Positions 10,453 to 54,050 of a stretch of DNA of 64,000 nt are shown here, in pieces. Each line of letters starts with the position of its first letter. Within the stretch, counting starts at the first letter, position 1. The notes below the pieces were generated by a model, which was not told the DNA's origin, searched no databases, and saw only the letters and a program-made list of their open reading frames with translations. The DNA is taken from assembly GCA_023131895.1 (NCBI GenBank), contig JAGLYZ010000002.1, positions 43,364 through 107,363 of the forward strand. Reading direction: 5' to 3'. The stretch is from Candidatus Parcubacteria bacterium (GTDB lineage: Bacteria > Patescibacteriota > Minisyncoccia > Minisyncoccales > JAGMDC01). The position numbers were made by a program, and so were the translations under genes.

Positions 10453-11580
10453 TTATTTAACAGGGTGAATATTTTTAACTTCTGAAATAATTTTTCCATC
10501 TATCACTCTTAAATCTATGTTTTCTCCTATTTTAGCGTCATCTACTCGCTTAATTATCTTTCCATAATGGCTGGCGATGCTGTAACCAAGACGAAGCTGG
10601 CGCTCCGGATTATTAAGCTCAATGATTTTAACAGAATGTTCAAGTCGCTGGCTGATTGTTGACAATAATGATTTAAATCCAAATACGGATTTTTCCCACG
10701 AGTTCTTTATGCTAATATTAACATTTTCCAAAACATTTCCATAGAAGCCGATAGTGTCTCTTTCATGCTTTTCTAATAAAAGCATAGCATGCTTCCATGA
10801 TTCATTAAGAAGATTCGCAGCAGCAGTAGGAGTAGAAACTGAAACATCTGCCGCTAAAGCAGCAAGCGGTTCATTTTTATGGTGCCCTATTCCAAGAACT
10901 ACTGGAACCGGGAAATTAACTATTTCCATAACTAACAATTCATTATTAAATGCCATCATTGACTCTAATGATCCTCCGCCGCGAATTATAACAAGAACGT
11001 CAATATCCTGTTTTACGAATGTCCTTATTGACGATAAAAGATCTGCTACTGCCACTTGGCCCTCAACGCGAGAATCAATCATCTTAATTTTAAAGCCAAA
11101 TTTTCCTAAATTATTTAAAAAATCCGCTAAAACAGCACCTTGGCGCGAGGTAATCACACCGATTTTCTGCGGATACTTTAGGATCGGCCGCTTTCTAATT
11201 TCAGCAAAAGCGCCTTGCTCGGTTAGTTTTTTCTTTAATCTCTTATACTCTTTTTCTAAAGTCCCCTCTCCTGCATATTCAATTGTTTCCGCTATAAAAG
11301 AAAATCCATATAACGGATGCATGCTTGGAGAGCCAAAAGCAATAATTTTATCCCCTATCTTTAATTTAATGCCATAAATACTATATATAGATTTCCAAAT
11401 TATGCATTTTATTATACTTCCATCTTTTTCGTCTTTTAAAGAAAAATAGACATGGCCTGTTGGTCCAAAACTAATCTCGCTTACTTCTCCTATAATTTTT
11501 GCTCTATATTTTTTTAATTCTGTATTAAGAATATCAATGTATTCAGAAACAGAAAAAATTTTGTCTTTGCTATACTCCAT
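10453..11580 (-). CDS. xseA: exodeoxyribonuclease VII large subunit
   Basis: 375 aa; N-terminal OB fold (VSEISFGPTGHVYFSLKDEKDGSIIKCIIWK) and catalytic core (VIIRGGGS) typical of XseA. Confidence 0.85.
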   Translation of the reverse strand: MEYSKDKIFSVSEYIDILNTELKKYRAKIIGEVSEISFGPTGHVYFSLKDEKDGSIIKCIIWKSIYSIYGIKLKIGDKIIAFGSPSMHPLYGFSFIAETIEYAGEGTLEKEYKRLKKKLTEQGAFAEIRKRPILKYPQKIGVITSRQGAVLADFLNNLGKFGFKIKMIDSRVEGQVAVADLLSSIRTFVKQDIDVLVIIRGGGSLESMMAFNNELLVMEIVNFPVPVVLGIGHHKNEPLAALAADVSVSTPTAAANLLNESWKHAMLLLEKHERDTIGFYGNVLENVNISIKNSWEKSVFGFKSLLSTISQRLEHSVKIIELNNPERQLRLGYSIASHYGKIIKRVDDAKIGENIDLRVIDGKIISEVKNIHPVK

Positions 11581-31521: not shown

Positions 31522-31552
31522 ATACGATAAGGATATGATATCCTTATCGTAT
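31522..31552. promoter_or_regulatory. perfect 31-bp palindrome ATACGATAAGGATAT-g-ATATCCTTATCGTAT (15-bp arms), candidate operator about 35 nt upstream of the 73-aa gene
   Basis: Arms read directly; perfect complementarity. Confidence 0.5.
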
Positions 31553-35123: not shown

Positions 35124-36569
35124 TTGTCAAGGTTGCTTGATGTAAATATATGGGTTAAGATTAAATATATGTTAAAGCTATACAATACTTTATCGCGGAA
35201 AAAAGAGGTTTTTAAACCAATAAAGAAAAAGCAAGTTGGACTTTATACCTGCGGACCAACGGTTTATTTTTATGCCCATATAGGTAATTTGAAAACTTAT
35301 ATTTTTGAAGATATTTTAAAAAAAATATTAGAGTATAACAGCTATAAAGTAAACCATGTAATGAATATCACTGATGTAGGCCATTTAACTTCTGACGCTG
35401 ATACTGGCGAAGATAAACTGGAAAAAGGCGCAAAAAGAGAAAAGAAAACTGTTTGGCAAATCGCTGAATTCTATACCAAGGCGTTTAAGAAAGATATAAA
35501 AGATTTAAACATTGAAGAACCAGATATTTGGATAAAAGCAACTGACACTATTAAAGACCAGATAAATTTAATCAAAATTTTGGAGAAAAAAGGATTTACT
35601 TATAAAATTGACGACGGCATTTATTTTAATACAGCAAAACTTAAAACTTATGGCCGATTATGGGGCAGAAAAAAGATATCAATGAAACCAGAAGCAAGAA
35701 TAAAAATGGCTGCTGGCAAAAAAAATCCTACTGACTTTGCTTTGTGGAAATTCAGCCCAAAAGGAGCTAAAAGGCAAATGGAATGGAAATCGCCTTGGGG
35801 GATTGGATTTCCTGGCTGGCATACAGAATGCGTGGTAATGGGAATTAAAAATTTAGGTGTTCCATTTGATATTCACTGCGGCGGAATTGATCATATTCTT
35901 ATTCACCATACTAATGAAATCGCCCAGGCAGAAGCTGCTTATGGAAAAATTTTAGCAAATTTCTGGCTGCATAGTGAATTTCTCGTTTTAGGCAAGGAAA
36001 AAATGGCAAAATCTAAGGGCAATATTGCTATTTTGGATGAGGTTATCAAAAAAGCATTTAATCCTCTTGCCTATCGCTATTTATGCCTTGGCGCGCATTA
36101 CCGCTCAAAACTAAACTTTTCATGGAAGGCATTAGAAGGAGCCCAAAATTCTTTAAATAATCTTTATCAAAAAGTAGCCGAATACTCCGAGAACCGTTCT
36201 CGCTCTGGAAGAATCAAGAACGATTCTTCCAAAATCAAAAATTATCAAAACAAATTTCTGGAATTTGTTAATGACGATTTGAATACGCCAAAAGCTTTAG
36301 CTTTACTCTGGCAAATAGTCAAAGCTCAAGAAATATCAAACAGAGAAAAGTATAAACTTTTATTAGATTTTGACAAAGTTTTTAGCTTGGACTTAGACAA
36401 AGTTAAAAAACTGCGAATACCTCAACAAGTTAAAAAACTTGTAGAAGAAAGAGAAAAATTTCGTGAGCAGAAAAACTGGAAAAAAGCAGATGAAGCTCGC
36501 AAAAAAGTTGAAAAAATTGGATATCAAATTGAAGATACTGAAAAAGGATATAAAATCTTGAAAAAATAA
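35124..36569 (+). CDS. cysS: cysteine--tRNA ligase
   Basis: Class I motifs HIGN (HIGH) and KMAKSKGN (KMSKS); Zn-binding Cys/His; DALR-like C-terminus; true start probably at Met 35169. Confidence 0.9.
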
Positions 36570-42181: not shown

Positions 42182-44626
42182 TTATCCAAGTCTTGACCTT
42201 TCCATTATTTCTCTTTCAACAAGTGCTCTTGGTCTGCCATATTTTAGCTTGGAGATTTTCTTGACTGGTTCTACAATTTTTGGATTACCTCCAACTGGTT
42301 TAATGGTTTTTACCTTAAATGGAGAAGAAACCTTGTTGTCTATTATCATCTTAACAATAAACTGAAAATTATCAAGATTAACTAAGTCATAACGGGAGAA
42401 TTCCGGCTCAAGGACATTTTCCAAAAATTCAGCATCAGTGGCGCCAATTCTGAAGGCAGCAATTGTTCCCACGTTTCCAATCACAGCGTTTCTAATCTCA
42501 TCGGTTAATTGAGGAATAAACTGGTGTGCTAAAATTAAATCCAAACGGTATTTTCTCGCCTCTGATAAAATAGTAGCAATGGTATCAGTGGTGAAGTTTT
42601 GAAATTCATCAATATATAAGTAAAAATCTTTTCTCTGTTCTTCAGGCAGTTTCCCTCTTTTCATTGCAGCTAACTGCATTTTTGAGACCAAAATCAAACC
42701 CAATAAAGAACTATTCATTTCGCCTGTTTGTCCTTTTGACAAATTGGCTAAAAATATTTTTCCTTCATCCATAATCTTTGCCAAATCAAACCCAGAAAAG
42801 GACTGGCCAATAATATTCCTCATCATTTCATTCTCAACAAATCTGCCAACTTTGGAAACAACATAACCAAGCATATCTGACTTTGTTTCGCCAGTTGTTT
42901 GAGCCCATTCTTTCAGCCAGAACTGCTTTACTAAAGGATCTTTGACTTTTTCTAACCGTTCCTTCATAAAATCATCATCTGTAAAAATTCTTGGAATTTC
43001 CACTAATGTTCCTGGGTTTTCTTTATCTGCCATTAAAGCAAGCATTGCGTTTCTCATATAATGCTCAAACATAGGACCAATGATTTCTGGAGGAAAAAGC
43101 TTGGAGAAAATAGCAATCATTTCAGAAACAGCAAAATCTTTTTGTTCAGGCGTATCCCATTCCAGCATATTTAATCCGCATGGTCTTTCTAAATCAAATG
43201 GTTCAAACAAAACCACATCTTCAGCCCTTTCTTTTGGAATATTTGCTAAAGTGTCTTCAATCAAATCACCGTGAGGGTCAATTACAGCTACCCCTCTTCC
43301 TTGTTCTATATCCTGACGGATCATTTCTCTTAACAAGGATGACTTACCAGTTCCGGTTTGACCAATAATATAACAATGGCGGCGCCTGTCGTTTTCTGAA
43401 GCAAAATAAACATCTTTTTCTTCATTGCGAAAAACTGCCTTACCTATTAAATTAAGTCCAGTAGAGGGCAATTCAGTAGGCGGCGCTGTTTCTTTTGTTT
43501 TGACCCACTTGATTTGAGGGCTTTCAATATTAGATAAAGGGAAATGATAAATACTTGTAAGTTCTTCTAAATTTAGAATACTCCTCTGGTTTTTATTGAA
43601 AACACGAAAACTGAAATTATAAATAAACTGCTTGAGTTTGTTCGCTTTTATTCTTACTGCCTTAAATTCATTGAAATTATTATAAAACTGGGAAAAACCG
43701 CTTTCTAAGTGGTCTAAAATTTCCTCTGCCCTTGATTGTTCCGGTGCTACACTTACTAAACGGATATTTATATCAAAAACCGGCTTTTGGATTTTTGTTT
43801 TAATTGCTTCAAAGCTCGGTTCTTCAAATGGTTTGTCTTTTTCTTTATCTAATAGTCCTTTCTTCTCTTCTTCTTTTTTTGGAGATACTGCTTCAAAAAA
43901 TGATTCAAAAAACTTCATTATTCCGCTTTTCTCTGCTTCAGTAATAGCTGATGAGGCAGATTTTCCTTCTCTGATTTTATAAAGAACCTTTTCTCCCTTA
44001 TACTTCAAATCTATTGGACAAGGCCTAAGAATTATTTGAACTGCCGCTCCTTCGTCAGGATTAATCTTGCTTAAAGTATTAGTAATGCTTGCCAAAGGAT
44101 CTCTATCCAAATTTTTATAAGTATTAATCGGATAATAAATTGCTTTTTTTAATTTTAGATAACAACCAGATACTTTTCCTTCTGGTTCAAATACAGTATA
44201 ATCTTCAGGAACTTTTTCTACTTGAGCGCCTGGATATAATCCCTGAATATTTTTTTCTAATCTGGTTGCCAAATCAGTTGGAACAGCAACATAAAAAGAA
44301 ATATCACTGCCGCCTGTTTGTGAAGCAATTTCTAAAGCAATTCTTGGCGAGCCTTGCAAAAATCTTTTAATAAAATTCGGCTTTTCTAAATACAAAAAAT
44401 TAGAATATATCTGCTCCATTATTCCAATCACTGATTTTATGTCCTGTTTCTCTTTTTCTTCTTTCTTTTCGTATTTCGGTAATCTCACCAAAAACAAAAC
44501 CATATCCAATGATTTTGTTAATTGCTTAATTTTTCTTTTCTTAATAACTAAAAACCAACCTGTTCCAGCAAGAATAAAAGCTATAAAAATTAAAATCGTA
44601 AATAAAAAATACATAAATAGTATCAA
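42182..44626 (-). CDS. TraG/VirD4/TrwB-like coupling-protein ATPase (FtsK/HerA superfamily) with N-terminal membrane anchor
   Basis: N-terminal TM helices (ILFMYFLFTILIFIAFILAGTGWFLVI), Walker A IIGQTGTGKSS followed by VIDPHGD (cf. DPKGE of VirD4/VirB4), Walker B LYIDEFQNF, C-terminal LILAHQFIPQL (cf. VirD4 ...TQS..QL); 814 aa. Confidence 0.55.
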   Translation of the reverse strand: MILFMYFLFTILIFIAFILAGTGWFLVIKKRKIKQLTKSLDMVLFLVRLPKYEKKEEKEKQDIKSVIGIMEQIYSNFLYLEKPNFIKRFLQGSPRIALEIASQTGGSDISFYVAVPTDLATRLEKNIQGLYPGAQVEKVPEDYTVFEPEGKVSGCYLKLKKAIYYPINTYKNLDRDPLASITNTLSKINPDEGAAVQIILRPCPIDLKYKGEKVLYKIREGKSASSAITEAEKSGIMKFFESFFEAVSPKKEEEKKGLLDKEKDKPFEEPSFEAIKTKIQKPVFDINIRLVSVAPEQSRAEEILDHLESGFSQFYNNFNEFKAVRIKANKLKQFIYNFSFRVFNKNQRSILNLEELTSIYHFPLSNIESPQIKWVKTKETAPPTELPSTGLNLIGKAVFRNEEKDVYFASENDRRRHCYIIGQTGTGKSSLLREMIRQDIEQGRGVAVIDPHGDLIEDTLANIPKERAEDVVLFEPFDLERPCGLNMLEWDTPEQKDFAVSEMIAIFSKLFPPEIIGPMFEHYMRNAMLALMADKENPGTLVEIPRIFTDDDFMKERLEKVKDPLVKQFWLKEWAQTTGETKSDMLGYVVSKVGRFVENEMMRNIIGQSFSGFDLAKIMDEGKIFLANLSKGQTGEMNSSLLGLILVSKMQLAAMKRGKLPEEQRKDFYLYIDEFQNFTTDTIATILSEARKYRLDLILAHQFIPQLTDEIRNAVIGNVGTIAAFRIGATDAEFLENVLEPEFSRYDLVNLDNFQFIVKMIIDNKVSSPFKVKTIKPVGGNPKIVEPVKKISKLKYGRPRALVEREIMERSRLG

Positions 44627-44641
44627 TAGTATTTCACTGTT

Positions 44642-45364
44642 TTATTTTCTTCCAAACAATCTTTTTATTATTCCCAGCCTACCTTTCTCTTCCTCTTCTT
44701 TCTCTTTCCCTTCTGGTATTCCTGTTTCTTCTCCACTAATTTTTTCTTCATCTTTTTCTGACTCTGTCTTTTTCACAAGCTCTCCTCTTCGTTCTAATTC
44801 TTGTAATTCTTCCTTTAATTGATTATAATTTTCTTCCAATTTCTTCATTTCTTTTTCTCTTTCTTCTAAATCTATCAGAGGATTTTGCCATTTTTCTTCT
44901 GGTATTCTACGAATTCCACCTTTGTCAAATTCACCTTTTTCTATTCTTATTTTAAATCTTTCCGCATTCTCCTTCGCCATAGTTAACATCTTATATTTCT
45001 GGTCTATTTCTAAAATTACTCCTTCTAAGTTATTAAAAATCTCCTCGGCTTTTTCTGTTAACAATCCATTTCTTTGCAACTCTTTCCAATTTTCCATTTC
45101 TCGCATTTTTTCCATAGCTTCTTCTATTTTTTCTTTCTCTTCTTCTATTATTTCCCTTTCTTCTGGTGTTAATTCGTCTTTTAACTCTTTCCTTGTTTCT
45201 TTAATCTTTCTTTTGTCTTCGGCTTCAATCTCGGCTTCTTGTTCCTCAATTTCCTCTTCTGACACTTCTTCAATTTTTTCTTCTTTAACTGCCCCTTCTT
45301 CTTTCCTTTTTTCTGCTCTTGTTCTGCCCTCATATTCAATTTTAGGTTTTTCTTGTTTTGGCAT
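44642..45364 (-). CDS. E/K-rich coiled-coil protein (240 aa) with N-terminal PKIEYEG motif
   Basis: Low-complexity charged heptad-like sequence; shares its N-terminal motif with the genes at 47346-48254 and 46652-47248. Confidence 0.5.
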   Translation of the reverse strand: MPKQEKPKIEYEGRTRAEKRKEEGAVKEEKIEEVSEEEIEEQEAEIEAEDKRKIKETRKELKDELTPEEREIIEEEKEKIEEAMEKMREMENWKELQRNGLLTEKAEEIFNNLEGVILEIDQKYKMLTMAKENAERFKIRIEKGEFDKGGIRRIPEEKWQNPLIDLEEREKEMKKLEENYNQLKEELQELERRGELVKKTESEKDEEKISGEETGIPEGKEKEEEEKGRLGIIKRLFGRK

Positions 45365-45417
45365 AAATTTAAATTTTGAATTTTTTTTATTAAACTCGAC
45401 CTTTTTATTTTTCTAAT

Positions 45418-45807
45418 TTATTTTTCTAAAAATTTCTTGAAACGGCCTTCTTCTGCTAAAGTGTCGTGGAATAAATCTAAAAGATATGGGTCGTTCATTT
45501 TCCGAACCACTTCTACCGCATAAGCCAAACCCTGGGTTTGAGCCAAATCTAAAAGATGCTGGATCTTCCCTTGAACCGTTCCTTTTTTTATATCATCGGC
45601 TTGCTTTTGGGCTTGGACTTTTGTTTGAGGAGATAACTTAACCTTTTCAATCTCTTTTTCTATTTCTTTCCTTGCTTCTTTTTCCTGCTCGGTTAATTCT
45701 TTCTTTTCTAAAATCTCCTCCCTTTCTTCTAGGGTTTCTTTGGGAAAAACCTCTTCTCTGTATTCCTTTCCCGGTGCCTTTTCAATTTTTTTATTTGTTT
45801 CTTCCAT
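45418..45807 (-). CDS. E/K-rich small protein (129 aa)
   Basis: Charged N-terminal half, conserved-looking C-terminal helical region (LLDLAQTQGLAYAVEVVRKMNDPYLLDLFHD). Confidence 0.45.
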   Translation of the reverse strand: MEETNKKIEKAPGKEYREEVFPKETLEEREEILEKKELTEQEKEARKEIEKEIEKVKLSPQTKVQAQKQADDIKKGTVQGKIQHLLDLAQTQGLAYAVEVVRKMNDPYLLDLFHDTLAEEGRFKKFLEK

Positions 45808-45808
45808 A

Positions 45809-46648
45809 TTATTTTTGATTTACGATACTAAAATAAAAGTTTAAAACATCATTCATACATTCAACAATAAAACTCAAAAAATCGCTTCCATCGTGCTGGA
45901 CAGATGCTTTTTCTAAAGCATTAATATATATACCTCTTTTTTCTAAAGGAATAATAGTAATCGGATAACTGTCTCGCAAAAGCATTAAATTCATTAAAAG
46001 CCGGGCTGCTCTGCCATTGCCATCAGTAAAAGGATGAATATGAGTAAAGCAGAAATGAAATAAAACAGCTCTTTTTATAGGATGAATATCAATATCGTTC
46101 ATAATCTTTACAAATTCTTCCATTAATTCAGGAACTTTTTCTGGTCGAGGCAGAACATGACGAGAACCTTTAATAAATCGCTGGTTTTTTCTATAAAATC
46201 CAATGCCATATTCATATTCTTTTTCTAAATTTTCCATTGGTTTAAACAAAATTTTATGAACTTCTTTCATTAAATCTTCGTTTAAAGGATATTTTTCTTT
46301 TTCTTTAACAATTTCTTTGATAAACTTCAACGCCTTATTATATCCTAAAACCTCTAAATGATCTTTTAAGGGCTTGCCAGAGATAGTAATTCCTTTTTCT
46401 ATTACTAATGCGGTCTCACCCAAAGTTAAAGTGTTCCCTTCTATCGCCGTGGAATTATGAATTTCATCAATAGCAAGTTTTTCTTCAAGCGATTTTAACG
46501 ACCCTGCTGGCAAAGGCCTTAAAGAATTTAATTCCTTGTTTCGCTTTTCAATCTCTCTCAAATCCACCTTTTCAAAACTCGTCAGTACTTTATCCATTAT
46601 TTCCTTAAAATCCGCGACATAACTTTGTAATTGATTTTGATTAGACAT
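45809..46648 (-). CDS. Fic/Doc-family protein (probable AMPylase) with intramolecular inhibitory helix (class II)
   Basis: Canonical Fic motif HPFTDGNGRAAR (HxFx[DE]GNGRxxR) and upstream inhibitory motif STAIEGN ([ST]xxxE[GN]); 279 aa. Confidence 0.85.
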   Translation of the reverse strand: MSNQNQLQSYVADFKEIMDKVLTSFEKVDLREIEKRNKELNSLRPLPAGSLKSLEEKLAIDEIHNSTAIEGNTLTLGETALVIEKGITISGKPLKDHLEVLGYNKALKFIKEIVKEKEKYPLNEDLMKEVHKILFKPMENLEKEYEYGIGFYRKNQRFIKGSRHVLPRPEKVPELMEEFVKIMNDIDIHPIKRAVLFHFCFTHIHPFTDGNGRAARLLMNLMLLRDSYPITIIPLEKRGIYINALEKASVQHDGSDFLSFIVECMNDVLNFYFSIVNQK

Positions 46649-46651
46649 AGT

Positions 46652-47248
46652 CTATTTCTTTTCGCCTTGAAAATATTTTTCTTTCAAAAATTTACTAAAT
46701 TCTTGCATCTCTTTTTGGTAAACCAATATTCCCTCTTCTTGCTTGGCTTGAGGCAAATCCTCAACCACATCCGCTCCTTGATTAGTGATGGCAAAAGCCC
46801 CATAAATTCCCCGTGATTCTATATGAAGCCGAATATCAAAAGCAACTTCTCTATCTTTGTAAAACTCATCTAATAATTCAATCATTCTTGATTGGTGTTT
46901 TAGATTTTCTTTTTTCCATTCTTTTTGAACTGATTCACTCTCTTTTAAATTTTTTGGTTCAGGAGATTTAATCCAAACCCAAGGAGCCCTTGATTGATGT
47001 CCTTTTACCTCTATTTCTTCGGGGCGCTTGGCGGGATGTCCTTCACAAGATTGATATGTTGGAAATTCTAAAGCTTTTAGGGTAATTACAGTTTCTTTAA
47101 TCCCAGGATCAATAGGCCTTCCTTCGGCATCTGCTATTTTTTTAACTTCTTTCTCTATTTCTTTTAAGCGCTTTTCTTTTAAGGGTAACTTTAATTCTTG
47201 CGATTTCTCTTCGGCATTTTCAATTTTTGACTTGAATCTCTCTCGCAT
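46652..47248 (-). CDS. hypothetical charged protein (198 aa), N-terminus MRERFKSKIEN...
   Basis: ORF 4 nt from the Fic gene; N-terminal motif shared with neighbours. Confidence 0.45.
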   Translation of the reverse strand: MRERFKSKIENAEEKSQELKLPLKEKRLKEIEKEVKKIADAEGRPIDPGIKETVITLKALEFPTYQSCEGHPAKRPEEIEVKGHQSRAPWVWIKSPEPKNLKESESVQKEWKKENLKHQSRMIELLDEFYKDREVAFDIRLHIESRGIYGAFAITNQGADVVEDLPQAKQEEGILVYQKEMQEFSKFLKEKYFQGEKK

Positions 47249-47316: not shown

Positions 47317-47349
47317 TAACACATCGAGGACAGTTCTCGATGTATTTAT
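47317..47349. repeat. REP-like palindromic element AACACATCGAGGACAGTTCTCGATGTATTTATT overlapping the stop codon of the HExxH gene
   Basis: 8-bp stem ACATCGAG/CTCGATGT; near-identical copy at 48261-48293. Confidence 0.5.
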
Positions 47350-48254
47350 TTCTCTATATCTAAATATTCTTTAGCTTTTAACATATCTTTTTCAAAACTA
47401 TCTTGTAAAACATCAATCTCTTTATTATAAACATTTCTAACAGCTTCGGTTATAGTCTTTTTATTTTTAAACATTTCTTGCCAAAGTTCTTGTAATTTCC
47501 TTAATCCGTATTTTTTCTCAAGCCAAGGATAAACAAATCCCTCCCAACTTTTGATTTCATCTTCCCAATCTTTCCCGGTTCCTTCCCACGAAAAACTTTC
47601 GCTCTTTTTTTCTAATTCCTTTAATTCTTTTTGAGCTTGTTTAAATTGATATTTTCTAAAACGCTTATTGCCAAAATTTGTTCTAATTTTTTCTCCAATG
47701 AAAATAGAGACCATTTCTTGCTCCCATTTACTCTCTGATTCCTCATTACCAACTCCGCCAAAAAAAGGATGCAGATGCCCAAGTTCATGACCCACTCCGG
47801 AAAATATACCGCTACGAGCAGTGTTTTCAATCTCTTTTAAAAAAATTCCCTTTTTTTGTAATAAATCCTTATATTCTTCTATTTCCTCTTTAGTTAGAAC
47901 AGATACATACTTAAAAACACTTTTTGTCTCTTTATCAAAAGTTGCCGATTCCGGGGATATATTTGGAAAATTTTCCTTTAAGAATTTGGAATATTTTTCT
48001 TTATCTGAAAATAAATAGATTTTTGATTTCTCGCTTGCCATATCTCTTTTTGAACCCAATATCTTATCAACAAATTCTTTCACTTCATCAAATTTTTTCT
48101 CATCACCATCTTCTAAAATGTTTTTTATTTCATTATTATAATAAATCTCAAAATTTTCAGATGTTAACGGCCCTTCTTCAAAAATATCTTCTTTTTTTTC
48201 TGTCATTTCTTTTTCTTTTCCATATTCAATTTTTGGCGTAAATTTTTCCCTCAT
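47346..48254 (-). CDS. putative zinc metallopeptidase-like protein (HExxH), N-terminus MREKFTPKIEYGKEKE...
   Basis: Single HELGH motif within GVGHELGHLHPFFGG; otherwise charged and uncharacterised; 302 aa. Confidence 0.45.
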   Translation of the reverse strand: MREKFTPKIEYGKEKEMTEKKEDIFEEGPLTSENFEIYYNNEIKNILEDGDEKKFDEVKEFVDKILGSKRDMASEKSKIYLFSDKEKYSKFLKENFPNISPESATFDKETKSVFKYVSVLTKEEIEEYKDLLQKKGIFLKEIENTARSGIFSGVGHELGHLHPFFGGVGNEESESKWEQEMVSIFIGEKIRTNFGNKRFRKYQFKQAQKELKELEKKSESFSWEGTGKDWEDEIKSWEGFVYPWLEKKYGLRKLQELWQEMFKNKKTITEAVRNVYNKEIDVLQDSFEKDMLKAKEYLDIEK

Positions 48255-48260
48255 AAATCT

Positions 48261-48293
48261 AACACATCGAGGTCTGTCCTCGATGTGTTTATT
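48261..48293. repeat. REP-like palindromic element AACACATCGAGGTCTGTCCTCGATGTGTTTATT overlapping the RAYT stop codon
   Basis: 11-bp perfect stem ACACATCGAGG/CCTCGATGTGT. Confidence 0.5.
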
Positions 48294-49014
48294 AATTTAT
48301 TAATATTTCTTTAAAATTGGAATCGGCCATTTGTTTTTTGAGCAAAAGCCATTGTTTAATAAAATGACGGCTATTATCTACACTGCCCATTAAGTTAGCT
48401 AATAACTCTCTGTTTGTTAATGAAGGATAATTTTTCCTGCCTAAATAATCAGGATAACTTGACCATTTATAACTTTCTAAAAACTCAATAATTTCTTCCA
48501 AATTTTTAATTTTAATTCCTTGTTCTTTCCATTTAGGAGCTATAATGGCCACTGGATTCGTATGGATATAAACAAATAATGTTTTTAATTGCTCATCATT
48601 TTTCACAAGAACTGCTCTAAATTTTCCCCCGAAAACATGACCCTTTCTTTCGTATTTCTTATTATAATAGATTCCATAACCTGCTCCAATTTTTCTCATA
48701 AACTTACTAATTCCGCTGTCGCTAATTTGTTTGACTAATAAATGAACATGATTTGGCATCAAACAAAACGCCAAAATCTGTATCAATATCTCTCTTTTCT
48801 TTCTTATAACTTTGCCGAGAACTGTTCTCGGCAAAGTTTTAGCAGTCTTGTGACGATAACCTGAATCAATTGGATTTTCGTCGTTGAATTCAAATAAATT
48901 ATGAAGAAAACGAAAATAATCCTTTTCATTCCTAAAAAGATTCATTCCTTCAACTGCTCGAATAACAATATGGTATATTTCTTCATTTACTAACGGTGGC
49001 CTTTTAATTGGCAT
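48292..49014 (-). CDS. IS200/IS605-like HUH tyrosine transposase of the REP-associated (RAYT / TnpA_REP) type
   Basis: Y1-transposase fold signatures: YHIVIRAVEG, HUH motif LMPNHVHLLV, catalytic-Tyr helix (IYYNKKYERKGHVFGGKFRA); 240 aa; flanked by palindromic REP-like elements. Confidence 0.8.
   Translation of the reverse strand: MPIKRPPLVNEEIYHIVIRAVEGMNLFRNEKDYFRFLHNLFEFNDENPIDSGYRHKTAKTLPRTVLGKVIRKKREILIQILAFCLMPNHVHLLVKQISDSGISKFMRKIGAGYGIYYNKKYERKGHVFGGKFRAVLVKNDEQLKTLFVYIHTNPVAIIAPKWKEQGIKIKNLEEIIEFLESYKWSSYPDYLGRKNYPSLTNRELLANLMGSVDNSRHFIKQWLLLKKQMADSNFKEILIN
48808..48838. repeat. perfect 14+2+14 palindrome AACTTTGCCGAGAAC-TG-TTCTCGGCAAAGTT inside the RAYT coding sequence
   Basis: Read directly; encodes ...KTLPRTVLGKV... 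in frame; shares the CCGAGAAC..GTTCTCGG core with elements at 49025 and 53949. Confidence 0.5.
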
Positions 49015-49024
49015 ATTATTTTTA

Positions 49025-49051
49025 ACTGTCCGAGAACGGTTCTCGGACAGT
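49025..49051. repeat. REP-like palindrome ACTGTCCGAGAAC-g-GTTCTCGGACAGT between the RAYT start and the CaCA stop
   Basis: 13-bp perfect arms; ends 2 nt before the CaCA stop codon. Confidence 0.5.
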
Positions 49052-49052
49052 G

Positions 49053-50006
49053 TTATTTTACGAGGATCTCGGTGATGATGAAAAGGATGTAAACTCCTAA
49101 TAGAAATAGTCCTTCTTTTTTGGTAATTTTTCTGTCAGAACGGACAAATATTAAAAAGAATAAAGCAGCCATAATTAAGAAAAACCGAGCAACAGCGTAA
49201 GGAGAAAAACTAACGATTTCAATCGGACAAATAATAGCTACAATGCCTAAAACTAAGGTAGAGGCGACTATAACAACACCCATTAAATCGCCTAAAAGCA
49301 TCCAATTCTGGCCTTGCCGGGCTGAAAGCATGGTAAAATACGCTTCTGGAAAAGCATTGCCAATGGCAATAATAAACATTCCAATAAAAACCAAAGAGAA
49401 ATGAAAGGTCTCTGCAAAATAATAAGCTGATTCTACCATTCCTTTAGAGGCTGCGAGTAAAATAATTATTCCAAAGGCTACTTTCCCCAAGCCCTTAAAA
49501 AAATCTTTAAAACTTTTTGCGCTAATTTTATTCCCATTATATGTCTTGCTGAATCTTTCTTTTTTAGAGAAAAGCCAAAGAGCATAAAATATAAAAGCAG
49601 AAATCAAAACCATTCCATCGCCTCTTGATAAAACGCCGTCAAAAATTAGAAAAAGAGGCAAAAGAGCAATAATGAAAGTAAAGACCGCTGATGACTGAAC
49701 CATCTTGCTCCTAGCTGGTATTCCCTTGCTAATAAAAGCAGACAAGGCAACAATAACTGTTAAGTCAAGAAGATTGCCGCCAAGCGTATCTCCAAAAGAA
49801 AGCTGAGGAACTCCTTTAAAAGCAGATAGAATGCCAAAGAAAAAATTAGGCGCAGAGCCGGCAACAGCCACTATAAAAAAAGCAATGACAAATTCCCTTA
49901 ATTTTAAAAAACAAGCCATTTTTACTAATCCATCAACAAGCCACTTTCCAGACAAGAAAAGCAAGAAACAAGAAACAAGAAAAAGTAAAATATAAAAATA
50001 AAACAT
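49053..50006 (-). CDS. Ca2+/cation antiporter (CaCA family, YrbG-like), paralog 1
   Basis: 10-TM architecture with two alpha-repeats (GDTLGGNLLDL, GNAFPE); 317 aa; about 50% identical to the next gene. Confidence 0.8.
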   Translation of the reverse strand: MFYFYILLFLVSCFLLFLSGKWLVDGLVKMACFLKLREFVIAFFIVAVAGSAPNFFFGILSAFKGVPQLSFGDTLGGNLLDLTVIVALSAFISKGIPARSKMVQSSAVFTFIIALLPLFLIFDGVLSRGDGMVLISAFIFYALWLFSKKERFSKTYNGNKISAKSFKDFFKGLGKVAFGIIILLAASKGMVESAYYFAETFHFSLVFIGMFIIAIGNAFPEAYFTMLSARQGQNWMLLGDLMGVVIVASTLVLGIVAIICPIEIVSFSPYAVARFFLIMAALFFLIFVRSDRKITKKEGLFLLGVYILFIITEILVK

Positions 50007-50009
50007 AGA

Positions 50010-50981
50010 TTATTGAGTTAATAATTCACAAAATACAAAAGTAATATAAATGCCTAATAGAAACAGAGCTTCTTTTTTAGTAATTTTGCTATCAGTCCGA
50101 ACGCAGAAGAAAAAGAACAAGGCTGAAAGAATTAAGAAAAATCGAGCAACAGCAAAAGAAGAAAAATTAATTATTTCAATCGGACAGATAAAAGCAACAA
50201 TTCCTAAGACCAAAGTAGCAGGCACCATGATTGAGCCCATTAAATTGCCTAAAATCATTCCAGTCTCCCCCCTTTTAGCAGAGATAATAGCAAAATGTAT
50301 TTCAGGCAAAGCGTTTCCAAGGCCGACAATTAAAATACCGATTAAAGGCAAAGATAAATTCCAGTTCTGCGCGAAAAAAGAAGCTGACCTCACTATTCCT
50401 TCTGCTGCTACTAACAGTAAAACCAGGGATAAAATGACTGTAGTCAAGCTCTTTATAAAAAGCTTAAATCCTATAATAGTATCTTTTTTTTCTTCTTTTT
50501 CTTCTTCTTTATAAACTTTTTTAAATCTTTCTTTTTTAGAAAAGAGCCAGAAAACATAAAACATAAAAGCAAAAATTAACAAAATTCCGTCTCCCCTGCC
50601 TAATGTCCCGTCTAAAATTAAAACTATTGGCAAAATAGCTACAGCAATTGTAAAAATTGAAGAAGTTTGAATAAGCTGGCCTTTTGCAGGGATAAACGTT
50701 TTTGAAATTAAGACAACCAAAGCCACTGCTAATGTTAAATCAATAACATTGCCTCCCACTACATCTCCAAAAGAAAGCTCAGGAATTTTGTAAAGAGCTG
50801 AATTAATTCCGACAAAAAGATTTGGAACAGAGCCGGCAAAAGCCATAACAAAAAAAGCAACCACAAATTCCTTCCATTTTAAAAACCTGGCTATTCTAAT
50901 CAATCCTTCAACTAATAGCCTTCCTGACCAAAGAAGAATTATACAAGAAAAAACAAAAATAAAAGTATAAAAACCAATCAT
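50010..50981 (-). CDS. Ca2+/cation antiporter (CaCA family, YrbG-like), paralog 2
   Basis: Same architecture (GDVVGGNVIDL, GNALPE); 323 aa; tandem duplicate. Confidence 0.8.
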   Translation of the reverse strand: MIGFYTFIFVFSCIILLWSGRLLVEGLIRIARFLKWKEFVVAFFVMAFAGSVPNLFVGINSALYKIPELSFGDVVGGNVIDLTLAVALVVLISKTFIPAKGQLIQTSSIFTIAVAILPIVLILDGTLGRGDGILLIFAFMFYVFWLFSKKERFKKVYKEEEKEEKKDTIIGFKLFIKSLTTVILSLVLLLVAAEGIVRSASFFAQNWNLSLPLIGILIVGLGNALPEIHFAIISAKRGETGMILGNLMGSIMVPATLVLGIVAFICPIEIINFSSFAVARFFLILSALFFFFCVRTDSKITKKEALFLLGIYITFVFCELLTQ

Positions 50982-53635: not shown

Positions 53636-53676
53636 ATTTCTGATTTGCTATAGCAATTTATATTTAGAAATAAAGT

Positions 53677-53714
53677 AAAGAAAAAGAGGGATTGATTAAT
53701 CCCTCTTTTTCTTT
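53677..53714. terminator. perfect 15-bp-stem hairpin AAAGAAAAAGAGGGA-ttgattaa-TCCCTCTTTTTCTTT between a small acidic ORF and the P-type ATPase promoter region
   Basis: Read directly; also a perfect 12-bp palindrome TTGCTATAGCAA at 53645-53656 just upstream of the ATPase start. Confidence 0.4.
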
Positions 53715-53721
53715 AATTATT

Positions 53722-53948: not shown

Positions 53949-53967
53949 ACCGAGAACAGTTCTCGGT
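53949..53967. repeat. REP-like palindrome ACCGAGAAC-AG-TTCTCGGT 8 nt downstream of tRNA-Glu
   Basis: 9-bp arms, same core as the RAYT-flanking elements. Confidence 0.45.
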
Positions 53968-53975
53968 GGCTCTTG

Positions 53976-54050
53976 TGGCCCTGACGGGATTTGAACCCGT
54001 GTTACCAGATTGAGAATCTGACGTCCTAGACCAAGCTAGACGACAGGGCC
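53976..54050 (-). tRNA. tRNA-Glu (anticodon CTC), CCA not encoded
   Basis: Hand fold: acceptor GGCCCUG/CAGGGCC, D-arm CGUC...GACG, anticodon stem UCAGA/UCUGG with loop UUCUCAA, T-arm ACGGGUUCAAAUCCCGU, discriminator A. Confidence 0.75.

Follow-up and report, generated by a model that had tools for sequence, protein, structure and literature searches.

Of all domesticated transposases that live alongside a population of mobile hairpins of their own, RAYT-like enzymes are the best known. Among TnpAY1 proteins a Y---NP motif marks class 2 (RAYT in the broad sense) and Y---Q marks class 1/IS200 (PMC6006769). E. coli RayT/TnpAREP (REPtron, subclass 2.2, PDB 4ER8) cleaves and rejoins single-stranded DNA beside a hairpin in vitro (PMC8266576, PMC6006769), and the REPs of E. 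coli have a 5′ GTAG guide, an imperfect, bulged stem and hundreds of copies. A GT[AG]G foot at the 5′ side is shared by the canonical REP/RAYT systems (subclasses 2.2, 2.4, 2.5, 2.7 and 2.8), and canonical REPtrons usually exceed 100 copies per genome. In other bacteria most REPs are found 3′ of ORFs, where they can provide stop codons (PMC3733652), and in TnpAY1 subclass 2.4 of cyanobacteria and Bacteroidetes they are inserted in frame within tnpAREP (PMC6006769). The largest RAYT group, which has no known substrate and was reported without REP-like partners, has been described as TIRYT/‘TIRtron’ (Di Nocera et al. 2013, PMC3733652), as TnpAY1 subclass 2.1 (Quentin et al. 2018, PMC6006769) and as RAYT group 1 (Bertels et al. 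2017, PMC5581495). Its members have a median length of 238 aa and a signature made up of NHVH, FQ or W[EQ], Y[IV]HLNP or YIELNP, and SS in the tail (Table 1 of PMC6006769), and Quentin et al. found no REP-like sequences for the group (PMC6006769). No description of subclass 2.1 in Patescibacteria was found in the literature searched.

Here we describe a Y1/HUH gene of this kind in a 64-kb stretch of Parcubacteria DNA (the window, by which we mean the whole stretch analysed). What is new is a family-wide palindrome inside the ORF, matching the copies that flank the gene and located in a CPR-specific linker of the protein.

A Y1/HUH gene and its palindromes

The window contains six copies of the palindrome, which are listed here with the Y1 gene and the ORF next to it.

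48292-49014, minus strand: Y1/HUH gene, ORF of 240 aa, class-2 TnpAY1, RAYT-like/TIRYT-like
47346-48254, minus strand: 302-aa ORF with a GHELGH (HExxH) motif, enclosed by two diverged palindromes
49025-49051: UP palindrome, perfect 13+1+13, ACTGTCCGAGAAC-G-GTTCTCGGACAGT
48808-48838: LINKER palindrome, perfect 15+1+15, in frame within the Y1 ORF
48261-48289: DOWN palindrome, 12+5+12, AACACATCGAGG-TCTGT-CCTCGATGTGTT; alternatively 14+1+14 with one mismatch
47318-47346: second diverged (ACATCGAGG-type) palindrome, imperfect 14+1+14, perfect core at 47321-47343
53949-53967: tRNA-Glu copy, perfect 9+1+9, ACCGAGAAC-A-GTTCTCGGT
36187-36203: cysS copy, CCGAGAAC-C-GTTCTCGC, within the cysS ORF and encoding SENRSR

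All the elements that an initial annotation had described, namely a 240-aa HUH/Y1 gene flanked by cognate palindromes, are present, and several details of their geometry can be corrected. UP lies 10 nt before the Y1 ATG and, as had been seen, close to the stop codon of the CaCA gene, from which it is separated by 1 nt rather than 2 (49051 against 49053-55). LINKER is indeed perfect, although it pairs as 15+1+15 and not as 14+2+14; it encodes aa 59-69 of the Y1 protein (K-T-L-P-R-T-V-L-G-K-V), 43 nt 5′ of the match to the HUH motif (CLMPNHVH), and falls within residues 53-69, a low-confidence segment of the AF2 model. DOWN is situated 2 nt past the Y1 stop codon (48292-94) and 6 nt ahead of the start codon of the next gene, and its core (CGAGGTC/CGAGGAC) is a diverged form of the CGAGAAC core that is retained by the DOWN copy of the closest orthologue, in locus L081. 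The second diverged palindrome is found just beyond the stop of the 302-aa HExxH ORF, its perfect core 2 nt from that stop (47346-48), with arms CGAGGAC and CGAGAAC and an orientation flipped relative to the 48261 copy. Since only two differences remain once the 48261 copy is flipped, the earlier remark on an inverted loop between the 47321 and 48261 copies holds. Two copies had also been said to overlap stop codons, but the perfect palindromes 47321-47343 and 48261-48289 each lie 2 nt away, and contact with a stop is limited to the outer, imperfect arm of the 47318-47346 form.

The copy reported behind tRNA-Glu (53975-54050, minus strand) was recovered 7 nt beyond the 3′ end of the tRNA; it occupies the same place in L081 (ACCACCGAGAAC-T-GTTCTCGGTGGT) and is absent in locus L002. 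The cysS copy (CCGAGAACCGTTCTCGC, 36187-36203), overlooked in the initial annotation, falls in an interdomain stretch that is variable in an alignment with PDB sequences, and the CysRS of L002, which is 67% identical, is without the insert. In the window murC is likewise counted with cysS as a housekeeping gene that holds an in-frame short palindromic repeat.

As DNA hairpins, UP (-12.7 kcal/mol, z = -7.2), LINKER (-15.5 kcal/mol, z = -8.2), DOWN (-13.7 kcal/mol, z = -10.1) and the 47318-47346 palindrome (-7.5 kcal/mol, z = -4.9) belong to the five extragenic and Y1 copies, which range from -7.3 to -15.5 kcal/mol (z = -4.2 to -10.1), and the cysS copy is a weak hairpin (z = -1.9). Over the window, the 17-mer palindrome pattern with at most three mismatches is matched five times (0.04 expected), perfect stems of at least 13 bp occur six times (0.02 expected) and GC-rich stems of at least 11 bp three times (0.01 expected). 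Four other independent assemblies have the locus at 99.7-100% identity with every palindrome unchanged, so it is not an assembly artefact.

Identity of the Y1 protein

The protein has the hallmarks of the HUH/Y1 superfamily: an HUH motif (H89-V-H91), a single catalytic tyrosine (Tyr149) and a Y1_Tnp domain (Pfam, E = 2.7e-11, 44.1 bits against a cut-off of 23). Tyr149 lies within YIHTNP, the Y---NP signature of class 2 TnpAY1, and the tail motif is WSSY. Across 119 Y1 sequences H89, H91, Y149 and N153 are invariant and P154 is nearly so (at least 90%). The NCBIfam model REP_Tyr_transpos scores 45.8 bits, which is below its equivalog cut-off of 80, and the protein reaches 19.6 bits with the IS200 model NF033573 (cut-off 55). 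Every named homologue among the 920 found belongs to the Patescibacteria.

The AF2 model (pLDDT 85.9) has residues 53-69 as its sole internal low-confidence segment and a helical C-terminal tail, and its fold matches 4ER8, 2XM3 and 2VJV. The best match in the PDB is 4ER8, E. coli RayT with a REP hairpin (E = 7.9e-6, 13% identity in the structure-based alignment); ISDra2 and IS608 TnpA rank behind it (E about 5e-4 to 1e-3). A sequence-profile search of the PDB with the A1 profile matched ISDra2 TnpA and not 4ER8. A C-terminal HTH (Bac_DnaA_C, HTH_23 or HTH_28) gave no Pfam match up to E = 5 in 23 family members.

The Y1 protein thus belongs on the RAYT side of the HUH/Y1 family and is not an IS200/IS605 TnpA. 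Judged by motifs and length, it carries the subclass 2.1 signature (NHVH, YIHTNP, WSSY, 240 aa), with VFGG where the family consensus LFQG has the FQ motif. This signature, the length of the protein and its plasmid relatives point to TIRYT/TnpAY1 subclass 2.1/RAYT group 1. The plasmid relatives, from P. aeruginosa and R. rubrum, are TIRYT-like, also fall just under the REP_Tyr_transpos cut-off (75.6 and 77.4 bits) and have flanking inverted repeats with GGGGACAG or the palindrome GGGGTCAGACCCC, the latter a core that recurs in the CPR loci L028 and L041.

Inheritance of the locus

Gene order around the Y1 gene is kept in relatives: mraZ-rsmH-PBP-tRNAGlu-ATPase-CaCA-CaCA-Y1 in L081, mraZ-rsmH-PBP-ATPase-CaCA-Y1 in L002 and mraZ-rsmH-PBP-CaCA-Y1 in L005, with the CaCA-Y1 junction kept in L001. 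Neighbouring proteins in these syntenic relatives are 39-62% identical and the Y1 proteins 58-77%. The window has a single copy of the gene, directly behind the CaCA genes and seemingly lacking its own promoter, and where paralogues share a genome they are just 54-75% identical; the several near-identical copies at varying sites that an IS200 would leave were not found, and the syntenic locus in L001, L002, L005 and L081 shows that the gene is not an active IS200. The 302-aa HExxH ORF, which had no match in family searches, is missing from L081, the closest syntenic relative, where only a remnant of its first codons (ATGCGGGAAAAATTC...CCAAAAATTGAAAAT) follows Y1.

A conserved three-palindrome layout

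The intragenic palindrome is conserved in about two thirds of the Parcubacteria orthologues that we examined (40 of 61 genes have a LINKER with at least nine pairs), and it covaries; it is a hallmark of this Parcubacteria clade and no single-gene curiosity. Its position is shared, ending 33-81 nt upstream of the HUH-motif match, within a linker that joins helix A to the HUH strand, measures about 30 aa, is disordered in the model and is absent from non-CPR relatives. Y1 genes translate the LINKER DNA in all three frames (PRTVLG, YENSSRS or GREQFSA). UP is found in most orthologous loci, its end -2 to about 30 nt from the ATG in many of them and the ATG sometimes included, and DOWN often includes the stop codon. 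The flanking palindromes are single, perfect and 19-43 nt long. Of 74 loci, 21 have perfect palindromes at all three places (UP, LINKER and DOWN) and 38 at two or more of them.

Orthologues change the palindrome core completely while the copies within each locus stay alike (arm identity 0.85 within loci against 0.35 between loci), and paralogues in one genome each have their own palindrome type. Double changes are seen in 13 of 14 pairs, and the covariation score is 0.777, compared with 0.205 in shuffles (none of 500 reached 0.777) and at most 0.196 when slid; because the palindromes entering this test were preselected for inner stems with 7 bp or more of perfect pairing, its unbiased part is confined to the outer seven pairs, which are 69-90% paired. 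Stems are perfect Watson-Crick with almost no G-U, and G-U pairs are not enriched among the non-Watson-Crick cells. Centre bases of within-locus pairs are the same in 25 cases, complementary in 32 and otherwise different in one. Inversions between palindrome copies were not found in 95 loci. Exactly the UP-to-LINKER segment has been lost in L069, a side effect of the repeats.

The foot GT[AG]G occurs in one of 118 family palindromes and in none in the window. GGGGWSAS, a motif carried by many of the inverted repeats at TIRYT genes, is present exactly in 9 of the 118, against 0.2% of control 29-mers, and the window cores GAGAACAG and GAGGACAG are two and one mismatches from it.

Dispersed copies

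In metagenomes the exact palindrome core was found at 88 distinct sites of low GC, 31 of them within ORFs of at least 100 aa, which include those for a class I aminoacyl-tRNA synthetase, PheT, ComEC, MgtE, Mur ligases and MurJ. The Y1 gene is missing from the contig at most sites, the contigs often being short, and extra copies are rare within 10 kb of orthologous Y1 genes. Overall density is low, about one per 20-50 kb; on contigs that contain the palindrome at all, further copies occur about every 38-55 kb, a density that suggests tens of copies per genome. Like that of a REPtron, the gene has at its flanks, within 1 kb, a palindrome also found in other places (behind tRNA-Glu, in cysS and at the metagenomic sites), and the family extends beyond one locus as had been supposed.

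The initial annotation's description of a RAYT/REP system stands for the enzyme, which is on the RAYT side by its Y...NP motif, its scores (45.8 against 19.6 bits) and its match to 4ER8, and fails for canonical REPs, in that there is no GTAG and the density is low. Placement ‘exactly at stop codons’ describes the copies bracketing the Y1 gene only, as 9 of the 88 dispersed copies lie within 15 nt of an ORF 3′ end. The suggested role as gene-end terminators or stabilisers is unsupported, given the absence of a T-tract on the gene strand, the lack of G-U enrichment and the perfect Watson-Crick stems. A terminator-like scan of the gene (minus) strand flagged the tRNA-Glu copy alone, its other matches being on the plus strand of an AT-rich genome; by the definition of an intrinsic terminator (GC-rich hairpin plus U-tract on the gene strand) the palindromes do not qualify, and one of them is inside an ORF.

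Discussion

The Parcubacteria system resembles TIRYT/subclass 2.1 in protein size (about 238 aa) and in its motifs, namely NHVH, Y[IV]HxNP, an FQ ‘W-motif’ and SS in the tail; low copy number, divergent paralogues and gene-flanking inverted repeats that overlap gene ends are shared too, and some TIRYT repeats are self-complementary and form moderately abundant families. It differs in that TIRYT flanks are long TIRs, whereas those described here are single 19-43 nt perfect palindromes with exact GGGGWSAS in just a few of them, in that a C-terminal HTH was not detected, and in the CPR-specific linker of about 30 aa with its third, in-frame palindrome. E. coli RayT, the best structural match, is similarly a single-copy, vertically inherited Y1 enzyme with flanking cognate hairpins that are also found elsewhere; unlike the REPs of E. 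coli, the palindromes lack GTAG, have perfect stems and probably number in the tens. As in subclass 2.4, a cognate palindrome lies in a peripheral, variable region of the enzyme’s own ORF with the frame intact, but here it is upstream rather than downstream of the HUH-motif match, before the HUH strand, at one fixed site clade-wide and in concerted evolution with the flanking copies. The TnpA proteins of IS200/IS605 elements (IS608, ISDra2) share the HUH/Y1 fold and recognise hairpins at element ends on single-stranded DNA; they have a Y...Q motif and a core of about 150 aa instead of Y...NP and 240 aa, and none of the many near-identical copies, imperfect asymmetric end hairpins or frequent tnpB of such elements is seen here. 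Rickettsia palindromic elements, which at about 100-150 bp are longer than the 17-31 nt inserts described here, and intragenic REPs are comparable as short palindromic repeats tolerated in frame in the loops of housekeeping proteins (here cysS and murC in the window, and aminoacyl-tRNA synthetase, PheT, MgtE, Mur ligases and MurJ in relatives). We know of no dedicated enzyme for the Rickettsia elements, unlike which the inserts here share their core with palindromes around a Y1 gene.

On the available sequences, we think it probable that the Y1 gene encodes a domesticated, vertically inherited single-strand-DNA hairpin nuclease/ligase of the TIRYT/RAYT-group-1/TnpAY1-2.1 kind, housed in a conserved three-palindrome unit with its cognate hairpins. 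The palindromes are most likely the hairpin substrates of the Y1 enzyme, kept alike and occasionally spread by it. In favour of this reading are the family and modelled fold of the protein, the gene order kept in relatives, the three-copy layout with its covarying arms and flipped centres, and the dispersed copies. Against it speak the four near-identical strains, in which every palindrome is unchanged, the lack of inversions in 95 loci, the many metagenomic sites on (often short) contigs with no Y1 gene, the scarcity of extra copies around orthologous Y1 genes, the finding of Quentin et al. that subclass 2.1 has no REP-like sequences, the exact GGGGWSAS in only 9 of 118 palindromes and the negative result for a C-terminal HTH. 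In single-stranded DNA, for example at replication forks, each palindrome would fold into a hairpin whose apex (consensus cGArGTC-N-GACyTCg) would be recognised by the enzyme, which may cut and rejoin the DNA next to it, an activity that E. coli RayT and S. maltophilia TnpAREP show on REPs in vitro. Acting mostly in cis, this activity would keep the three local copies alike and now and then seed a new copy elsewhere, while hairpin-templated copying, through quasi-palindrome template switching and/or the enzyme’s strand transfer, could maintain the symmetry of the arms and the flips of the centre. The in-ORF copy may have originated by in-frame insertion of a cognate palindrome into a permissive loop and then been carried along. 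A bolder version, to which we give only a small chance, makes that copy a working part, a built-in cognate substrate through which the gene supplies the enzyme and at the same time acts as donor or target of its own hairpin. The enzyme might then act in cis on the three copies with new palindromes templated from an ORF-protected ‘master copy’, or it might limit itself by cutting or deleting its own gene, the L069 deletion being such an event. This version would explain why the layout is kept in a genome-reduced lineage and in orthologues down to 35% identity, and would amount to a self-contained replicator/regulator design undescribed for any HUH enzyme.

Regulation offers a different account, in which the Y1 protein, or some other dimeric binder, controls the Y1 gene by way of the palindromes, these being operator or roadblock sites in double-stranded DNA or else mRNA structures: UP would occlude the start, the in-ORF copy pause or attenuate and DOWN insulate, with the dispersed copies as by-products. 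The closeness of UP to the ATG in many loci and the frequent spanning of the stop by DOWN fit such autoregulation, the clade-wide fixed in-ORF position suggests a position-dependent role, and the gene, straight after the CaCA genes, seems promoterless. IS200 provides a known precedent, as its left-end hairpins block read-through and hide the ribosome-binding site. An operator, however, has no need of flipping centres or of outer arms that are lineage-specific and perfect over 13-21 bp, the lack of G-U enrichment argues against RNA structure, and the same palindrome stands in frame in many unrelated housekeeping genes, so that we consider autoregulation rather unlikely. We also find improbable a canonical RAYT/REP system in which the REPs at stop codons serve in addition as RNA hairpins of gene ends, either terminators or 3′ stabilisers. 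Three palindromes do lie 1-2 nt from stop codons and one behind a tRNA, REPs elsewhere are mostly 3′ of ORFs (PMC3733652) and the modelled fold is closest to RayT; yet the GT[AG]G foot appears in 1 of 118 palindromes, the protein scores under the NCBIfam RAYT cut-off, density is low, the tRNA-Glu copy alone is terminator-like on the gene strand, 31 of 88 dispersed copies are inside ORFs while just 9 come within 15 nt of a 3′ end, and pairing in the stems is perfectly Watson-Crick, G-U being almost absent.

Spread and perfection could instead be independent of the enzyme, through template switching or another recombinase, the palindromes being relics of ancestral element ends plus one old in-frame insertion and the link to a Y1 protein of now unrelated function being historical. 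The Y1 gene is not near most palindrome sites, the tRNA-Glu copy predates the split from L081 and variants at the strain level show no sign of activity (four near-identical strains, 0.1-0.3% divergent, have every palindrome unchanged); template switching at quasi-palindromes is, moreover, an established route to perfect palindromes. Relics should nevertheless decay independently, whereas copies are alike within a locus (0.85 against 0.35), and each paralogue has its own palindrome type as do RAYT-REP pairs (PMC6006769), which leaves this explanation distinctly unlikely. An active insertion sequence of the IS200/IS605 type, with hairpins at its left and right ends, is hardly credible: although the hairpins bracket the gene as tightly as in a minimal IS, Pfam Y1_Tnp is matched and the PDB sequence matches are to ISDra2 TnpA, we rejected it on the Y...NP motif in place of Y...Q, the IS200 score of 19.6 bits against 55, synteny among neighbours 39-62% identical, the single copy in the window with paralogues 54-75% identical, the absence of tnpB and the use of the same symmetric palindrome at both ends.

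The palindromes mark synteny breakpoints and deletions and could confuse assembly and gene calling in CPR metagenomes. They also show that very small CPR genomes tolerate a hairpin repeat family entering housekeeping genes in frame, and provide a natural experiment on the upkeep of perfect palindromes, with 118 examples and a known phylogeny. For the enzymes themselves, a large Parcubacteria branch of group 1 has an unambiguous cognate palindrome that covaries with the gene, flips and occupies three fixed places, including the ORF, and these palindromes are a defined candidate DNA substrate with which to test what group 1 enzymes do.

The Y1 locus and its palindromes

Every gene of the Y1 region lies on the minus strand, in the order tRNA-Glu, P-type ATPase, two tandem CaCA genes, Y1, an HExxH ORF, a 198-aa ORF and Fic. 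The Y1 gene and the palindromes of the window are listed here, with UP, LINKER and DOWN denoting the copies before the Y1 ATG, inside its ORF and after its stop codon.

Y1 gene and palindrome copies in the window
48292-49014, minus strand: Y1 gene, 240 aa
49025-49051: UP palindrome, perfect 13+1+13; 1 nt past the CaCA stop, 10 nt ahead of the Y1 ATG
48808-48838: LINKER palindrome, perfect 15+1+15; in frame in the Y1 ORF, encoding KTLPRTVLGKV
48261-48289: DOWN palindrome, 2 nt past the Y1 stop
47321-47343: palindrome copy, 2 nt past the HExxH stop
53949-53967: palindrome copy, 7 nt past tRNA-Glu
36187-36203: palindrome copy CCGAGAACCGTTCTCGC, within cysS

All palindromes reported in the initial annotation are present in the sequence, with some adjustments: the in-ORF palindrome at 48808-48838 is perfect and in frame as described, with arms of 15+1+15 rather than 14+2+14; the copies at 48261 and 47321, said to overlap stop codons, are close to them and start 2 nt past; and the five copies found must be joined by the overlooked cysS copy at 36187-36203. 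Since the 47321 copy combines one arm reading CGAGGAC with another reading CGAGAAC, and the 48261 copy has a lone mismatch when read as 14+1+14, the two palindrome “types” of the window are a single family.

The 17-mer pattern of the family matches five times in the window (0.04 expected), perfect stems of at least 13 bp occur six times (0.02 expected from Markov shuffles), and DNA hairpin z-scores range from -4.2 to -10.1, with the cysS copy as a weak exception; a chance origin is excluded. The Y1 locus is 99.7-100% identical in four other independent assemblies, which rules out an assembly artefact, and no palindrome flips or changes were found among these near-identical strains. At a permissive threshold Rfam returned only tRNA-Glu, the other matches being weak, below threshold and taken as chance.

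Y1 is a RAYT-like protein

The Y1 protein matches Pfam Y1_Tnp (E = 2.7e-11) and scores 45.8 bits against the NCBIfam RAYT model, under its cut-off of 80, and 19.6 against the IS200 model. Every named sequence among its 920 homologues is from Patescibacteria (Parcubacteria, Nealsonbacteria, Minisyncoccales, Paceibacteria), and the best 120 of the 920 range from 227 to 280 aa in length, with identities of 56% or more. Residues H89, H91, Y149, H151 and N153 do not vary among 119 sequences. The protein bears the class-2 mark Y---NP, without the IS200 mark Y---Q, and its motifs are NHVH, LFQG (family consensus), YIHTNP and WSSY, at a length of ~238 aa. A motif set of the NHVH/YIHTNP type at this length is the signature of TnpAY1 subclass 2.1 according to Quentin et al. 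(PMC6006769), which corresponds to RAYT group 1 of Bertels (PMC5581495) and to TIRYT of Di Nocera et al. (PMC3733652).

Placement was settled by a fold search, where a PDB sequence-profile search had given only weak ISDra2 matches and had not found RayT. Using an AlphaFold model built from 119 sequences (pLDDT 85.9; a 23-sequence model with pLDDT 52 was discarded), the best PDB match was 4ER8, E. coli RayT with bound REP hairpin (E = 7.9e-6, target-normalised TM 0.66), followed by the ISDra2 and IS608 TnpA proteins (E ~5e-4 to 1e-3). Outside the CPR, the closest annotated relatives are plasmid-borne “transposases” of 230-235 aa from P. aeruginosa and R. rubrum. The inverted repeats on either side of them include GGGGACAG or a palindrome, GGGGTCAGACCCC, whose core also occurs in two CPR loci, L028 and L041.

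Palindrome copies within a locus evolve in concert

We surveyed 80 orthologous Y1 loci in species-representative genomes, and the typical locus holds three copies of one palindrome. The end of UP ranges from 2 nt inside the gene to ~120 nt before the ATG (mostly within ~50 nt), LINKER ends within the ORF 33-81 nt before the HUH-motif match, and DOWN starts between 8 nt inside the 3′ end of the gene and ~120 nt past it (mostly within ~15 nt). When perfect stems of 8 bp or longer are counted, 21 of 74 genes have the full set of three and 17 more have two of them. Conservation of the in-ORF palindrome in orthologues, a check proposed in the initial annotation, was borne out: LINKER has at least 9 pairs, one mismatch allowed, in 40 of 61 genes, and no comparable hairpin was found elsewhere in each Y1 gene. 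Both the identity of Y1 and the three-copy architecture are near-certain.

The copies of a locus evolve in concert, the 12 nt beside the centre having a mean identity of 0.85 within loci against 0.35 between them, with 44% of within-locus pairs identical over this stretch. In a register-fixed alignment of 29 LINKER palindromes, 13 of 14 pairs had changes on both sides, with 124 double-change cells against 36.5 in shuffles and a covariation score of 0.777, a value that 0 of 500 shuffles reached, against 0.205 in shuffles and at most 0.196 with slid partners; the inner 7 pairs were the selection criterion, so the outer 7, paired at 69-90%, are the sole unbiased test. G-U pairs are scarce and show no enrichment among non-Watson-Crick cells, which points to a constraint on DNA rather than RNA. 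The family consensus is AATnTwwCGArGTC-N-GACyTCGwwAnATT, with a modal length of 29 nt and G at position -6 in 96% of copies. As this core is read as PRTVLG, YENSSRS or GREQFSA in different Y1 genes, it is the DNA and not the peptide that is conserved. The linker hosting the palindrome is missing from proteobacterial relatives and forms the sole internal low-confidence segment of the AlphaFold model (residues 53-69); from sequence and model, it looks like an old in-frame insertion in a permissive loop, kept across the clade.

The initial annotation had remarked on an inverted loop between two copies, and this is correct and holds family-wide: of the within-locus pairs, 25 share their single centre base, 32 have complementary ones and one differs in another way. 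Under random mutation “otherwise different” centres should be twice as common as complementary ones, and the counts therefore indicate that whole palindromes are inverted, or re-copied either way round, faster than they mutate. Possible causes are strand transfer by the enzyme and template switching at quasi-palindromes during replication, the latter an established source of perfect palindromes. A phase switch by inversion of the N-terminal module between UP and LINKER was rejected (88 collinear, 0 inverted); the search also returned 5 loci with the C-terminal part alone.

Y1 is inherited in place

The closest syntenic relative, L081, keeps the order mraZ-rsmH-PBP-tRNAGlu-ATPase-CaCA-CaCA-Y1, with Y1 77% identical; more distant loci keep mraZ-rsmH-PBP-ATPase-CaCA-Y1 (L002), mraZ-rsmH-PBP-CaCA-Y1 (L005) or the CaCA-Y1 junction (L001). 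Neighbouring proteins at syntenic loci are only 39-62% identical, and this combination of conserved order and diverged neighbours implies that Y1 stays in one place and evolves at about their pace. In genomes with 2-3 Y1 copies the paralogues are 54-75% identical and each has a different palindrome type, the pattern of RAYTs and not of insertion sequences. Judged from sequence comparison, Y1 is not a mobile IS. The tandem paralogous CaCA (Na/Ca exchanger) genes at 49053-50981, which follow a P-type cation ATPase, are also paired in L081 and single in L002 and L005.

Palindromes coincide with the boundaries of deletions and rearrangements, as seen at two loci. In a Yanofskybacteria locus (L069, 6088-6642) Y1 lacks ~65 N-terminal codons and the UP-to-LINKER segment is gone; a single palindrome directly follows the stop of the upstream gene (product ending ...AKSVTVE) and directly precedes the sequence normally found after LINKER, an arrangement that looks like a deletion between the two copies. 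In the window, the HExxH ORF lies between two diverged palindromes, followed by the 198-aa ORF and Fic; this block is absent in L081, where a remnant of the first HExxH codons at 10740-10810, ATGCGGGAAAAATTC..CCAAAAATTGAAAAT, is broken by a small palindrome, CCCCGT..ACGGGG. The HExxH (47346-48254) and 198-aa (46652-47248) ORFs have similar N-terminal peptides, MREKFTPKIEYGKEK and MRERFKSKIENAEEK, and neither matched PADLOC, PHROGs, Pfam or NCBIfam; the Fic protein (45809-46648) has a SoFic-like PADLOC match, and these searches gave no link between the three neighbours and the palindromes. Further on are two very Glu/Lys-rich ORFs (44642-45807; 240 and 129 aa) and an 810-aa DUF87/T4SS-type ATPase (42182-44614), which with the adjoining Fic may form a small accessory or defence-like island downstream of Y1.

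Dispersed copies

Extra copies with the same core are rare within 10 kb of orthologous Y1 genes. Two occur in the window, past tRNA-Glu (kept in L081, missing in L002) and within cysS, in a variable linker of CysRS with 3 extra residues relative to L002; the comparison gives partial support to a clear in-frame insertion in cysS. An exact 17-mer scan of metagenome contigs matched at least 120 contigs. Among the matches listed, low-GC contigs hold at least 88 distinct sites, nearly all within longer perfect palindromes with varied outer arms, and ~11 low-GC matches fall in a Y1 gene or on its contig. Of these 88 listed sites, 31 are inside ORFs of at least 100 aa, the remainder being intergenic, and 9 lie no more than 15 nt from an ORF 3′ end. 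The ORFs that harbour a copy encode, among others, a class I aminoacyl-tRNA synthetase, PheT, ComEC, MgtE, two Mur ligases and MurJ, and the palindrome mostly sits between domains or at a domain edge. Contigs with one copy carry another every ~38-55 kb, a spacing that would put the number per genome in the tens rather than the hundreds; an estimate of ~1 extra copy per 100 kb, from the 10-kb flanks of orthologous loci, was too low for this core type and was corrected by the metagenome scan. The dispersal is REP-like behaviour at low intensity, at the level published for TIR families and for the repeats that flank group-1 RAYTs (PMC5581495, PMC3733652).

Several other palindromes and repeats were recorded. 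A different palindrome, GGAAGAATC-AAGAAC-GATTCTTCC (36205-36228), lies 1 nt past the cysS copy in the same variable interdomain CysRS stretch. A perfect 14+1+14 palindrome with a family-like apex, AGGTC-N-GACCT, at 2615-2643 (AAAATACACAGGTC-T-GACCTGTGTATTTT) is in frame in a MurC-type Mur ligase ORF (1944-3323, minus strand), encodes KKYTGQTCVF and is a second palindrome type within a housekeeping gene of this genome. A perfect 15+1+15 palindrome with an unrelated core, ATACGATAAGGATAT-G-ATATCCTTATCGTAT (31522-31552), is intergenic, 117 nt downstream of tRNA-Gln and 17 nt from a TTATCCACA box. Eight metagenome contigs (L102, L142, L143, L152, L169, L175, L177, L201) contain a head-to-head doublet 25 nt apart (..ACTACCGAGAACTGTTCTCGGCAATATTGCCGAGAACAGTTCTCGGTTGGT..), resembling a REPIN or BIME, with near-identical context in several samples and the centres of the two copies flipped. 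On contig L197 (909, 9079) two longer repeats 8 kb apart have in common the palindrome and a left flank of ~29 nt (gcgccttcggcacgggaattgaaatattaCCGAGAAC..); a larger unit may carry the palindrome along in some genomes.

The DnaA-box-like 9-mer TTATCCACA occurs five times in the window (0.5 expected), at 1960, 31569, 53927, 57420 and 57451: one copy separates the tRNA-Glu palindrome from a strong promoter-like site (-35 TTGACA, 53920-53915), and two are just upstream of mraZ. It abuts a palindrome at L016, L031 and L081, and in two Yanofskybacteria loci (L056, L063) the outer arms of Y1-associated palindromes are CCTGTGGATAA/TTATCCACAGG. Some subclass 2.1 proteins carry a DnaA-C-like HTH; since neither this nor a DnaA-type domain is detectable in the Y1 protein, the adjacency is recorded only as an aside.

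Proposed mechanism and alternatives

We consider it probable that Y1 is a domesticated RAYT-like enzyme with its own cognate palindromes. More tentatively, the enzyme may act on palindrome hairpins. The analogy is to RayT and the TnpAREP of S. maltophilia: next to REP hairpins, one of them perfect over 8 bp, these enzymes cut single-stranded DNA and rejoin it (PMC6006769). Y1 would recognise the conserved apex when hairpin-folded on single-stranded DNA and would cut and rejoin DNA near the hairpin; acting mostly in cis, it would keep the three local copies alike, and occasionally it would seed a new one.

That the palindromes are instead an autoregulatory operator or roadblock seems unlikely; UP mostly lies within ~50 nt of the ATG, and the family also occurs at dispersed sites, inside host ORFs among them. 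Canonical REPs serving as gene-end RNA hairpins, a role proposed in the initial annotation, are decidedly unlikely: in a scan for terminators, all palindrome matches except the tRNA-Glu copy were antisense to the genes, and the terminator reading is therefore rejected. Unlike the Y1 palindromes, a strong 18-bp A/T-tract hairpin at 53676-53715, bidirectional and terminator-like, between a promoter-like site and the start of the P-type ATPase gene and conserved in L081 (5302-5337), indicates that this genome uses classical terminator-type hairpins. Palindromes independent of the enzyme are quite improbable; paralogues each have their own palindrome type. An active IS200 is hardly tenable, with ISDra2 and IS608 TnpA second to RayT in fold and the Y1 gene conserved in position.

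Subclass 2.1 has been reported without REP-like partners (PMC6006769). Around TIRYT genes, Di Nocera et al. (PMC3733652) found TIRs, including self-complementary ones, and the literature we found makes no link between any of these systems and Patescibacteria. By comparison with these published accounts, what is new here is a TIRYT-like clade that extends across the Parcubacteria and has perfect palindromes lacking GTAG, in which one palindrome is fixed at a new position, within the ORF of the enzyme, and evolves in concert with the copies that flank the gene.
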